Assembly (NCBI GenBank): GCA_964016885.1
Contig: OZ024740.1
Location: 128,898,001-128,962,000, forward strand
Reading direction: 5' to 3'
DNA length: 64,000 bases
From: Eledone cirrhosa
Taxonomy: Eukaryota
Under the pieces are notes generated by a model. The model was not told where the DNA came from and searched no databases. It saw only the letters and a list, made by a program, of their open reading frames with translations. Positions 321 through 50,084 of the stretch are shown here, piece by piece; position 1 is the stretch's first letter; every line of letters begins with the position of its first letter. The translations under genes were made by a program, and so were the position numbers.

Positions 321-722
321 GAAAAAATTATAAAAGTATAAAACTATAAGAAAAAATTATAAAAGTATAAAACAAGCACTTTGATACTTGTGTATTCTAT
401 ATATATATATATATTTGGAAAAAATGAAACGAAATTTCATTTCTCACTCTTAGTACGACTGTTACTTAAATATAAGTATGTATACGTACATACATATATG
501 TATACAGACGTACAGTATTATATATATATATATATATATATATATATATATATATATATATATATATATATATATACATGCACACATATATATATATATG
601 TACGTTTTGGGTTTACCGAACATTTATTATAATGCTCAGTTTGTTTGTAAACAAACAGTCCAAATTAAGCCCTACAGTGTTTAGTAACCATCGTTGCCCT
701 TTTGTTCAACACTGACAAAGGA

Positions 723-765
723 ACGATGTACTAGTTTCAAGCTTATTAGCTATCGTCAGCATCGT
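723..765 (-). ncRNA. Minimal type I hammerhead ribozyme
   Basis: Minus strand: ACGATG CTGACGA T-AGCT-AATA-AGCT-T GAAAC TA GTA CATCGT. It has a 6-bp stem I, a palindromic stem III (ACTAGT) and a GUA cleavage triplet. Confidence 0.85.
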
Positions 766-1120
766 ACACCTTCCTGCCAGATGATTAAACGTTTGAAAGT
801 ATATACTTTCCTTATGCATATTAACGGCTGAGCAGCCTAATTTGTACATACGTACATACATATATATATGTGCATGTATGTATATATATACATACTACTG
901 TACGTCTGTATACATATATGTATGTACGTATACATACTTATATTTAAGTAACAGCCGTACTAAGAGTGAGAAATGAAATTTCGTTCCATTTTTTCCATTT
1001 ATAGTTTTCGGTGCGCCCGGCCGACTAACTCTCTCGATATGCAAATTAGGTTGCTCAGCCGGTAATATGAATAAGGAAAGTATATACTTTCAGACGTTCA
1101 ATCATCTGGCAGGAGGGTAT

Positions 1121-1163
1121 ACGATGCTGATGATAGCTAATAAGCTTGAAACTAGTACATCGT
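1121..1163 (+). ncRNA. Minimal type I hammerhead ribozyme
   Basis: ACGATG CTGATGA T-AGCT-AATA-AGCT-T GAAAC TA GTA CATCGT. Identical to the 723-765 copy except at the free core position N7. Confidence 0.85.
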
Positions 1164-3324
1164 TCCTTTGTCAGTGTTGAACAAAAGGGAAACGATGGTT
1201 GCTAAACACAGTATGGCTTAATTCTGGCTGTTTGTTTACAAACATACAGAGCATTATATAAATGATCCGTAAACCCATACGTTCATATATATATATATAT
1301 GTGTGCATGTATGTATATATTTATATATACATACTACTGTACGTCTGTATACATATATATATGTACGTATACATACTTATATATATAGCTTATTCAATTT
1401 TACAGTTTGACTCAACGCCAGAGTGTGTTCCACGTGAAATGTCAGGCATGGCTTAACTACACTATCATGTGAATTCTCGCGTCACTGAAAGTTGAGGATT
1501 TATACCTCACAGCCTTGTGCACTTCAACGTGATGTACGGATACCACACTCAGAGCAGAATTATAGAAATTGGTGCAACGGACCAGGTATCTGCAAGTTCC
1601 TAAATACACGAAGTCGTTTCCCTCACGGATTGATTTATAAGTGTACACTAATTGTTTGGGTTTGTATTTTAATAATACATAATTAATTGAATTATTGAGG
1701 GAGTAAGAAAACAACCGATCCTATGTCCATTCTATGGGATAAGCTTCGTTTCATAATTATTTTTAACACACAGTGGAGGGAAAGTGCGAGTGAGTGACTG
1801 CAAATATTTGTGTTTAAGAGCACACAGATACTGACTATGTGCGGGTTTCTCAGTGAAATTAAAATTGTTTTAATTGACATAAATCCTATATCAAGCTTTA
1901 CAACCTTCATTTATTATTTACTGAATATTGAAATTTTGCAGGTATTTCATTTTTACCAGACATAAATAAATCAATATAAATGTTATAACTATCAAATATG
2001 CGTACTGGAATCCACTTTATTTGAATTCTATCGGCTTTTCATAATTTTTCTTTCAAAAAATCAATCCTTTGTCGATGGTTCTGAAAATCATTTAACCTTT
2101 ACCTATAGTTTTCTTACCTTAAATACATTAAAATGTAATATTGACGAATGTTTCCATCTATCAATTGAAGCGATCAAATTTGCTTTAAATGCTTCAAATA
2201 ACATCCAAAACTTTTTTTGCAATATTTAAGTTAGTGTTCGCCTATTTGATGCAGAGAACACTGGTTGTGTTATATACAAATATATATATGTTCTAAAACA
2301 CAAACAACAATATTGGTCATAGATTTTTAACCGTTTCATAATTTACGCAATTACTGCAGAGCACGCATATATATCCCCAACGTTTCAGGAGAAGAGCTGT
2401 TATTATGGGCATAAGAATTAGAATTATTTAGCGAATAAATTACAGTGCTATTTCATCTCTATGAATAAGGCAATTTAACTTCCTGGTCGGATTTATAATG
2501 CGAGGAGTACAGCAAATTTGTGTTTGTGAAATTCAATTATTCGTTAGGGAGGATACACATGTAATTAAGAAAGCCTTAACCATATATATTTTAGTTAGTA
2601 AATTGCGATAATTATTTCTATCATAGAGATATTTCCTTGGGAACTACAAGTACAATCAATTTTTTACTAATATGTCGTGTTAACTTTGGTGCATCCACAC
2701 ATGTAAGAATCTAATGAAATGTCACATAAAGGATCGCCCCACTTGAATTGTGCCAACCATACCTAAATCTGGTTGGCTGTATATCTAAGTGAATCAGTAA
2801 TTAAGCCGACAACGCAGCACTGCACAAACCTATTCGTCGAGAGTCTATGGCTCATCAATAGCTTGTGAATAGAATTTACCAGACATAATACGAAGTGTAA
2901 AATAGGACAGATAGGAGACTCTGAGTAAGAAAGGTAGTCATTGGGAGGACACACGTTTGTGACGTAATAAGTTGATGATTAAAAATTAAACATCTATCCG
3001 GTGAATAAACTAACCAACGACTTGATTATATACACACCTCATAGTAAACTGAAGTGAACCTCGGTAGGTGCGTGCGTTTTATTGGCAAAACCAGGTAACA
3101 ATACACTAGGCCAAAAGAAATCCCGAATAGGGAGGATATCCCCCCGTGGTGACGTTAGGAATCTAACAAAATCTGAAACACCTTCATGTCCAAGAGTACT
3201 CTAGAAAGGTGCTTCTCTTTCTTTTAATATTTCTAGCCTACGGGTGCATGGTCAGAATAGGACTATTTCTACGGGAATTACTCACAACAATCACCCACAT
3301 TTTAATAAATGAACTGATTGGCAA

Positions 3325-3447
3325 ACTTCCCTCTCCACCCTCACATTCCTTTCGAAGTGGAACTTGAACATGTTGATGAGGCCTTGTTTAAATGGAAGTA
3401 TCAGTCTTCAGTCTTCTCAGCTGCATGCGCCATACAACCTCTTTCGC
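3325..3447 (-). mobile_element. Decayed 3' ORF2 fragment of a Tx1-like LINE
   Basis: Minus-strand translation gives KEVVWRMQL...MFKFHFERNVRVERE, similar to KEVVWWTRL...FFRYHFGRRIGMEGE at 13166-13480. Confidence 0.6.
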
Positions 3448-47479: not shown

Positions 47480-49345
47480 AAAGGATTGAAGAATAACATG
47501 AAACGTCTGTGTAATAATGGCCATGAACAATAGTGAACTCACTAGATCTCAGGTAGATATAATCCTAGCGGCCAGGAAAACAATAATTAAATTTGAAGAC
47601 CATTTATGGACCCGCAAAAATACACCCAACAACTTCGATATCACCATGGGATCTAGTGACTCGGCACAGGTAACTGACTTAGTCGGCCTATTTCGCTTAA
47701 ACGAAATACACAAAACCTACCTTACCTCAACGGTGGTCTCTATCGAGACGACGCACTCTTCCTCTTAGATTATAAAAAGTTCAATATAGAAAGAACTAGG
47801 AAACAGTTACATAACATATTTAAAAATTATAACTTAGGTATCACTTTAGATAAAAACACCAAAGATTTTAACTTCCTGGACGTCACTCTCTACTTAGACT
47901 CTAAAAAATACTCACCTTACCATAAACCTAATGAAAAACCTTTCTATGTTAATACCAACTCTAACCACCCTAAATATGTACTGACCTCAATCATTAAAGG
48001 GGTATCCAATAGAATCTCTAGCCTTTCTTACAACGAGAATACATTTAATCGTAACTCCCAATACTATAATGAAGCATTAGCCCGTTCCGGCCATAGGGAT
48101 AAAATTGAATGTAATCTTAGATCTTCAACCAGCCATAGAAAACCTAATATAATTTCACACACCATGGCCATGAATAAAAGTAAATATGATCGTTGTACTG
48201 GAAATCCAGACTCCTGTACAAAGGGCGCCATAAATAAAGTTAAATCACACCACAACAATAAACCTAAGAAACACCACAGAAAGAAAATTATAGATATGAA
48301 GGAACCTAACACTACACTAAACAGTAGTATGAATAACAACCATAGGAAGAATAGAAGAAGAAGTAGCACATTTTTTAGCACTCCGTTCAATTTAAATGTA
48401 TCAACAAACAAACCTAAAGCTTTCTTCTCTACTCTAGACAAAACATTTCCCAACTAACCATAAATACCACAACCTATTTAACAAAAGCACAATTAAAATA
48501 TCCTACTCCACCAAACCTAACATAGCAGATCATATAGCCAGCACCAACAAGAGAAAGATTGAAAAGTACTTCAAACTACACCAAAGTAATAATATCCAGC
48601 ATAGAAATAACCTGAACAACACCACAGTAAAATACCATACAAGTCATACTAATAATACAAATAGTAATAACACTCCCCATAATCATAACACGAGAAGTAG
48701 AAACAGAAACAACCACTCAAATGCACAAACCTTTAACCAGTATACTAGTAAACAAAATAATTGTAGGAGGATTTACATTTAGCAATCAACCAACAAATCT
48801 GATGACTATAAACGATTTAAAATAATCCCATGGTTAATAGCTGTGAGTAACAAACTACACATGCACAAAAATACGAACTACAACACAAAAACACTTAAAT
48901 GAAAATCACATACCCAACTCTATCTAGTGCTTTACATTACAGCTTACATAAAAATACCTACATTATCACCACACGCCTCTCTAATAAATTGCACATTATC
49001 TTAAATGTTTATAACAAATATAACATGATTTGAAACACCACACACAATATGTTTATTTCAACTGCATTATAACTCTTTCCTCATACATGCATTATTGACT
49101 GTATTGACTCCTGCATTGTACACCAATTGTCCTTGCTTATAACTTCTTTCTCTGTCTTTTTGCTTGTCATTTTTTTTGCTTGTGATTTTGCTTTTACTTA
49201 TACCTATTACACTTCCAACTAGGGCTGCCTGTAATTGTGTCATTTCAAGCGGAACATCTTGTTATGCTCCGATGATTCCAGACTTCCCTCTGGAAGAAAC
49301 AATTGTCAGCTGATAAATGTTCTAAACTAATATTTGATCGCTTTA
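47480..49345 (+). mobile_element. Decayed 5'-truncated Penelope-like element with 3' hammerhead
   Basis: FDITMGSSDSAQVTDLVGL, GLYRDDAL, NFLDVTL, PYHKPNE..YVNTNSNHP, YNEALARSG, PFNLNVST, LFNKSTIKISYS. Confidence 0.85.
49266..49310 (+). ncRNA. Minimal PLE hammerhead (U4C substitution)
   Basis: GCT CCGATGA TTCCAGA-CTTCCC-TCTGGAA GAAAC AATT GTC AGC. Confidence 0.75.
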
Positions 49346-49580
49346 ACACTTTGTATATATATATATATAATTGGAAATCAGTAGAATCGAATCTCTGGCG
49401 GTTTGCAAGTAAATTCGGCCTACTTATATGAAATATATATATATATATATGCAAAAGTTTTATTTAAAATTGTTGGGTTACAACGAGTAAATATTTTATA
49501 ACTGATATAAAGCACTCAACAAGATTTGGAGTAGACATACGATATTAAACAAATGGAAACTATATTTATAAAACCATATT

Positions 49581-49646
49581 TATTTCATTATACATATTTC
49601 AGGGATACCATATTAAAAATATGGCATGCCTTCTTCAGATAAAATA
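49581..49646 (-). ncRNA. Type I hammerhead ribozyme (mirror copy)
   Basis: Reverse complement of 49815-49880. Confidence 0.8.
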
Positions 49647-49814
49647 CAATATATAAGCAGTTTTATAAATAAATTTGACGTACCATAAAATATTGATCAA
49701 CTTCCATTTAAAAAAGTTGGTTTGGAAGTAGACTGCCAAACCAACTTTTTTAAATGGAAGTTGATCAATATTTTATGGTACGTCAAATTTATTTATAAAA
49801 CTGCTTATATATTG

Positions 49815-49880
49815 TATTTTATCTGAAGAAGGCATGCCATATTTTTAATATGGTATCCCTGAAATATGTATAATGAAATA
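49815..49880 (+). ncRNA. Type I hammerhead ribozyme
   Basis: TATTTTAT CTGAAGA AGG-C-ATGCCATATT-TTT-AATATGGTAT-C-CCT GAAAT ATGT ATA ATGAAATA. 8-bp stem I, 13-bp stem II, AUA triplet. Confidence 0.8.
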
Positions 49881-50084
49881 AATATGGTTTTATAAATATA
49901 GTTTCCATTTGTTTAATATCGTATATATATATATATATATATATATATATATATATATATATATATATATATATATATATATATATATATATATATGTAA
50001 AAGATAAACAGAAATAACCACACACTCGGTACAGTATATGGAAGGGATATATTAGGTTACCGCTTGATATAGCAGGAAGAAGGT

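Follow-up and report, generated by a model that had tools for sequence, protein, structure and literature searches.

A window of 64,000 nucleotides (nt) from the genome of Eledone cirrhosa (contig OZ024740.1 of assembly GCA_964016885.1, positions 128,898,001 to 128,962,000) contains eight short inserts in (TA)n microsatellites, which we relate in this work to Penelope-like elements (PLEs). An earlier interpretation of the same letters, the sequence-only reading, had described them as hammerhead ribozyme (HHR) cassettes of about six families, internally inverted and uniform in polarity. All eight inserts are indeed present and internally inverted, each with a minus-sense left arm and a plus-sense right arm, and they sort into six families, F1-F6, with the inserts at 9917, 18757 and 33809 together forming F3; paired arms are 81-99.5% identical (Table 1). 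The bounds had to be corrected in four cases: those of F2 (8119-8390), F5 (start at 20335) and F6 (start at 49537) had been set too narrowly because the one-sided tails were overlooked, and the insert placed at 18738 really begins at 18757, positions 18729-18756 being TA.

The relatives of these inserts were sought in the 3.0-Gb genome, which gave 570-3797 first-look candidates per family, 40 of which were scored for each; loci taken from this genome are denoted by L-numbers. In other copies, F3, F4 and F6, which account for five of the eight inserts, continue upstream into open reading frames (ORFs) for a reverse transcriptase (RT) and a GIY-YIG endonuclease (EN). For F4, 16 of 30 loci have EN directly upstream, and both RT and EN are found in all four long loci (L289-L292). 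All six long loci of F3 (L283-L288) contain EN and four of them RT as well; in one of the six, the partial tandem L283, the tail continues into the ORF. For F6, three of 30 loci extend more than 1.5 kb upstream (L181-L183), and these long copies possess a GIY-YIG domain (at the ORF cut-off in two of the three) and a 3' untranslated region (UTR) of 1.5 kb, with RT present in the longest of them; at the 5' junction, the end recurs as a short inverted copy. Both architectures expected of pseudo-long terminal repeats (pLTRs) occur: partial tandems in L283 and L291, and inverted 5'-truncated copies in L181, L182 and L284-L290. Most of the PLE ORFs seen are truncated or frameshifted, and the fetched F6 copies begin downstream of the RWK and DKT positions. 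The encoded motifs include RWR (instead of RWK), DKT, CxCx5C, CxxC..E and N..CxH, with no CCHH between the GIY and YIG equivalents of these proteins. Their Atlas neighbours carry RVT_1 and GIY-YIG, and a homolog search with the PLE ORFs returned 32 proteins, mostly unnamed. The link to PLEs drawn by the sequence-only reading is thus borne out by parents with RT and GIY-YIG, and the identification of the inserts as PLE ends is close to certain; by their sequence, those of F3, F4 and F6 are 5'-truncated, inverted pLTR ends of autonomous RT and GIY-YIG elements. A decayed PLE fragment from a family other than F6, in which the link from ORF to hammerhead is visible within the window itself, lies at 47678-49353.

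For the other three families, no such link to an ORF was found. F1 is built of a unit of 430-480 nt, present as partial dimers at many loci, and locus L242 (positions 1-3716) holds a head-to-tail array of at least eight F1-related units of ~482 nt, with seven intact HHR motifs spaced 482-492 nt apart, which terminates at the tail site, within a long tract rich in TA. As in retrozymes, the tandem units each have a type I HHR and no ORF, and F1 is classed by its sequence organization as a non-autonomous, retrozyme-type tandem unit. F2 is ~80% diverged, and a walk upstream from it reached a CT-rich shared region and no ORF. For a parent of F5, the first inferred upstream pattern gave 0 matches, and the second gave 116, the first 30 of which had no shared upstream sequence (this pattern would not detect parents that have T at the excluded position). 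F5 is likely a non-autonomous element of ~220 nt with a fixed 5' end. The population of small non-autonomous RNAs proposed earlier therefore holds for F1 and probably for F5, and fails for F3, F4 and F6, which have autonomous parents.

The generality of the arrangement was examined in an unbiased set of 60 evenly spaced 10-kb genome samples (600 kb in total; L193-L252), which contained 75 arm matches of the F1-F6 families. This is about half the density of the window, as expected because the families were defined from the window, which is no special cluster of these inserts. Seventeen directly joined pairs in the sample point 3'-outward and one weak overlapping match inward, and three pairs have TA between their arms. 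Over all loci examined, 160 of 160 directly joined F3-F6 pairs are 3'-outward, and all 15 of the 3'-inward neighbours have TA between them. TA adjoins 46 of 60 arm ends in the sample, compared with 8.6% of random positions. Both the uniform outward polarity and the preference for (TA)n, as claimed from the window, hold outside it. At many loci (e.g., L005, L015, L027 and L155), ends of different PLE families are stacked within one TA tract, which suggests repeated insertion into tracts used before.

Each insert had been said to carry a full or partial HHR. By motif and pairing, F1, F5 and F6 have a complete core in each arm and F2 has one in its right arm, the left arm of F2 carrying a mutated core, whereas the three F3 inserts retain only the 3' half of the ribozyme. 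In F4, we read the variant with U3-A8 at 12626 as the probable core, and the CTGATGA at 12700 as the putative 3' strand of helix II plus GAAA; the U3-A8 variant is also used by F5 and by the long form of F3. A canonical C3-G8 core pattern, applied upstream of F3, gave nine matches and missed the F3 parent, whose long copies carry U3-A8. A strict HHR descriptor yielded 18 matches in the 600-kb sample against 0-1 per shuffle (three shuffles) and two in the window against none in the shuffles, and it failed on F1, F2, F4 and F6, which have bulges at the base of helix II. No hammerhead was present among the 150 of 179 Rfam matches listed for the window, and folding energy, compared with shuffles, reached z < -2 in only two of six HHR motifs. 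The HHR calls therefore rest on motif and pairing by inspection rather than on Rfam or folding energy, and the pLTR hammerheads are treated as predicted ribozymes. The miRNA matches of the Rfam scan were rejected as hairpin and microsatellite noise. An additional minimal hammerhead family, overlooked earlier, was noticed to the left of the insert at 33809, and similar motifs flank L330 and L352; the descriptor also revealed a recurrent hammerhead family outside F1-F6 in the unbiased sample (L194, L221, L222, L225 and L245).

Each family has two discrete 3' ends, an untailed one (N) and a tailed one (T), which are 58 to more than 139 nt apart and are both joined to TA. The pairing of these ends was counted for F3-F6, leaving out F1 and the poorly aligning F2 and setting aside 10 pairs with partial arms; 10 apparently both-tailed F1 pairs proved to be an artefact of tandem units. 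One tailed arm is combined with one untailed arm in 145 of 150 classifiable pairs, while four pairs have no tail and one has two. Restricted to the unbiased, tail-neutral and incidental groups, the count is 105 of 109, and the unbiased sample by itself gives 13 of 14, whereas independent choice of the start site would yield at most 50% of N+T pairs. TA is found at both ends of 135 of the 145 one-tail pairs. Among the 88 one-tail pairs with mapped junctions, those whose arms differ by at least 40 nt carry the tail on the longer arm in 11 cases and on the shorter arm in nine, and the tail side of F5 is independent of the orientation of its centre (12 vs 11 of 26). In seven pairs, including the insert at 33809, an untailed arm is joined to a tail-only arm with no sequence shared between them, and the insert at 18757 is by inspection a further pair of this type.

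Short palindromes in TA and the near-fixed length of F5 would also suit miniature inverted-repeat transposable elements (MITEs), that is, TA-inserting DNA transposons bounded by terminal inverted repeats. Such an origin, contradicted for F3, F4 and F6 by their continuity with RT-EN ORFs, does not explain the one-sided tail, the variable 5' truncation or the single-arm copies, and we regard it as highly improbable.

Paired arms are more similar to each other than shuffled ones in F3 (divergence 0.059 vs 0.123, 13 pairs) and F5 (0.049 vs 0.073, 25 pairs), and in both families they carry common subfamily variants. Fold-back artefacts of sequencing or assembly are the least probable explanation and may be practically dismissed: although the F6 arms are 99.5% identical and the junctions in the window are known from the assembly alone, the arms of other pairs differ by 3-19%, the tail is on one arm only and the flanks are unlike. 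Contigs of four public runs, all from one study and possibly from the assembly's own sample, include a few F3 strand-switch joints, as well as loose ends that pass into TA precisely at T and N of F3; in these contigs, the summed depth, which is not copy number, falls about tenfold ~60 nt upstream. For F3, no RNA holder was listed.

The 5' ends of the arms bear on the nature of the template. Of 233 arms of F1-F6, none begins 3 nt or less from the predicted cleavage site and 189 extend across it; therefore, the template was uncut RNA, and F3-F6 do not show the retrozyme trait of being copied from HHR-cleaved monomers in tandem. In F2 and F5, 13 arms seemed to have their 3' end at the cleavage site and were traced to sister families that continue with their own sequence. 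According to the sequence-only reading, ribozyme-cleaved small RNAs of many non-autonomous families patch breaks in (TA)n with a PLE RT acting in trans. [quoted passage not shown] Passive break patching is also unneeded, since the elements encode their own endonuclease. The F3 start sites, counted in the unbiased sample, fall in the helix II region, and this hot spot adjoins a putative splice-acceptor-like pyrimidine-AG sequence (L283, ~5120-5135, minus strand); the 5' end of F5 is likewise at a YAG.

Two primers from one cut are reportedly used by L1 in the twin priming of Ostertag and Kazazian (2001), giving a 5'-inverted, 3'-outward pair in which the second site is said to be variable and the arms to be without overlap. 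In the inserts described here, neither start site varies, and overlapping arms are the usual case. We propose, with a probability of roughly 0.7, that the inserts are head-to-head 3' ends of Hydra-type PLEs and their likely dependants in (TA)n, produced by dual priming on one uncut RNA. The endonuclease of the element would nick both strands of (TA)n; one 3'-OH would prime at N and the other at T, perhaps aided by a TA dinucleotide following each of these sites; the two cDNAs would extend 5'-ward, often to a common stop or to the RNA 5' end, and would be joined end to end through short microhomology or by end-joining. For F5 and F1, the protein would be supplied in trans. The two-site twin priming itself is favoured somewhat less firmly; that the primings are coordinated, that they share one RNA and that the cDNAs are then joined is inferred. 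The sequence-only reading was right in its idea that a cut is primed from both ends. In vitro, the PLE protein of an anole nicks and extends both DNA strands, its RT starts at two internal sites delimiting the tail, the protein is a predicted dimer, and hammerhead cleavage is dispensable for Penelope insertion (PMC11167929).

For PLE inversions in other species, self-priming with resolution by the endonuclease has been proposed (PMC3846280, PMC8557442). Applied to the same elements, it would derive the palindromes from fold-back of an antisense template or a single cDNA and the tail side from endonuclease resolution. Many pairs are near symmetric (70/70, 161/161, 190/190 and 408/397), their arms have variants in common, and junctions cluster at natural hairpins, such as the F5 centre that is present as 183 exact copies, all of which would agree with fold-back. 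Fold-back of a single sense cDNA cannot yield a tail on the shorter arm, as seen in nine of 20 clearly asymmetric pairs, nor can non-overlapping tail-only arms arise by fold-back, and priming on a sense template from the nicked target has been shown in vitro at both tail sites (PMC11167929). The one-tail pairing that is independent of arm length and the non-overlapping pairs therefore argue against self-priming, which we consider improbable as a general explanation and yet much less so than small-RNA patching; an antisense model with a later cut may apply to the overlapping pairs.

Several observations weigh against the proposed dual priming. The Pfam scan did not recognise the PLE ORFs, and no upstream ORF was found for F1, F2 or F5 among the top-scoring loci. 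The similarity of F6 arms (10 pairs) is equalled by the shuffle minimum. Unpaired arms are frequent (24 ending at N or T in the unbiased sample), so that a second priming cannot be seen in every insertion. To form overlapping arms, strands would have to be displaced on a single RNA, or two RNAs would be needed. In the in vitro results drawn on here (PMC11167929), the start site is alike on both strands, N+T pairing is not shown, and priming occurs without target homology, unlike the suggested TA match.

Much of this anatomy has been published, contrary to the doubt expressed earlier as to whether it had been described: head-to-head and opposite-strand HHR arrangements are found in PMC3846280, PMC8557442 and PMC4209133, and a Hydra family is known from an octopus. 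The elements are tentatively assigned to the Hydra clade (Craig et al. 2021, PMC8557442) by protein motifs and (TA)n targets, that is, by the features given in that paper. They share with the clade the RWK-like, DKT and CxCx5C motifs, CxxC and CxH around conserved E and N, the lack of CCHH, the C-terminal GIY-YIG, a hammerhead near the 3' end, (TA)n targets, and inverted 5'-truncated copies with a tail at one end. They differ from its published account in size (~3-4 kb with 3' UTRs of 0.4-1.5 kb, compared with <3 kb), in tail length (80-125 nt, compared with 30-40 bp) and in being very abundant as short ends. The supplement of the same paper includes Hydra-1_Obim, a (TA)n-targeting Hydra family of Octopus bimaculoides, which is listed as 'no pLTR', unlike the elements here; Penelope families have also been reported in Octopus vulgaris (PMC13282606). 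The inverted truncated copies, one-sided tail and TA targets are thus published for PLEs, and PMC8557442 describes the way in which their inverted structures form as an open question. In Adineta vaga (Arkhipova et al. 2013, PMC3846280), head-to-head Penelope copies are usual, junctions are palindromic, one inverted pLTR may have a tail, and solo pLTRs act in trans, as here; the one-tail pairing was additionally counted in this work, was independent of arm length and included non-overlapping pairs. Like the minimal HHRs of PLEs described by Cervera and De la Pena (2014, PMC4209133), those found here are type I with a palindromic loop 3 and the U3-A8 variant, and the dual HHRs 100-700 bp apart on opposite strands were ascribed by these authors to truncated PLEs; the host is different, and F3 has a long, closed helix III. 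F1 resembles the non-LTR retrozymes (PMC7229834; bioRxiv 10.64898/2026.07.22.740005) in its tandem unit of 430-480 nt with one type I HHR and no ORF, and differs in that its inserts end at N and T as PLEs do, target TA and are inverted head to head. The paired start-site rule was not found in the titles and abstract openings of the papers listed by literature searches, a scope that excludes subscription papers such as the 2005-2006 PLE reviews. The coordinates of the inserts and of the neighbouring elements are collected in Table 1.

Table 1. Inserts F1-F6 in the 64,000-nt window, followed by other elements of the window
Feature	Position	Arms and tails (strand)	Hammerhead (strand)	Remarks
F1, retrozyme-type tandem unit	417-1385	left arm 417-844 (-), ends in 58-nt tail; right arm 847-1385 (+), partial unit plus full unit, untailed end	predicted type I cores 759 (-) and 1127 (+)	
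F2, old inverted pair	~7954-8420	arms 81% alike; left-arm tail ~7954-8085	core 8283 (+); mutated core 8224 (-)	
F3, short palindrome	9917-10108	80-nt tail and ~52-nt arm (-); ~58-nt untailed arm (+)	3' half only	parent ORF in L283-L288
F4	12343-12900	untailed left arm (-); right arm with 125-nt tail	probable U3-A8 core 12626 (+)	
F3 variant	18757-18873	untailed arm (-) and tail-only arm (+)	3' half only	arms without overlap
F5, near-perfect palindrome	20273-20633	arms ~150 nt; 67-nt tail on left arm	minimal, U3-A8, 20443 (-) and 20523 (+)	
F3 variant	33809-33924	untailed arm 33809-33865 (-); tail-only arm 33868-33924 (+)	3' half only	arms without overlap
F6	49451-49922	190-nt arms, 99.5% alike; 89-nt tail on left arm	cores 49638 (-) and 49823 (+)	3' end of an RT and GIY-YIG element
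Further F1 copy	1-10	tailed 3' end (+)		leads into TA tract 11-98
Interspersed repeat, ~92 nt	~12442-12533			splits left arm of F4; recurs in flanks of many loci
Non-LTR retrotransposon, frameshifted	13166-18214	(-)		ORF1-like frame, AP endonuclease, RT
Additional minimal hammerhead family	33694-33735		(+)	
Decayed PLE fragment	47678-49353	(+)	hammerhead-like motif, one core change, ~49267-49310	RT and linker ORF pieces 47678-48800, then 3' UTR; ends in (TA)n
Non-LTR element, shorter RT fragment	50699-51208	(+)		
Non-LTR element, RT ORF of 919 aa	60077-62836	(+)		

As a system, the inserts show PLE insertion anatomy of a known kind in a genome where Hydra-type elements are plentiful; the families, Hydra-type Penelope elements with their dependants, are new, real and abundant. 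The advance is modest: the counted, near-strict one-tail rule and the test that it suggests. Because the PLE ends are so abundant (75 arm matches per 600 kb) and resemble MITEs or miRNA hairpins, they are easily mis-annotated. The broader claim that every Penelope-type integration is a coordinated twin priming, in which the RT-endonuclease, as a dimer, begins one cDNA at the end of the tail and the second at its base, both on one RNA, stands at even odds in our estimation; if true, a single twin-priming rule would account for both the head-to-head pLTRs and the one-sided tail, which have so far been without a mechanism, and F5 (~220 nt) and the short F3 copies would be able to spread in trans as retroelements that mimic MITEs, the palindrome being rebuilt at each insertion. 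The one-tail pairing that does not depend on arm length makes the question of PLE inversion directly testable in the existing in vitro system (PMC11167929).

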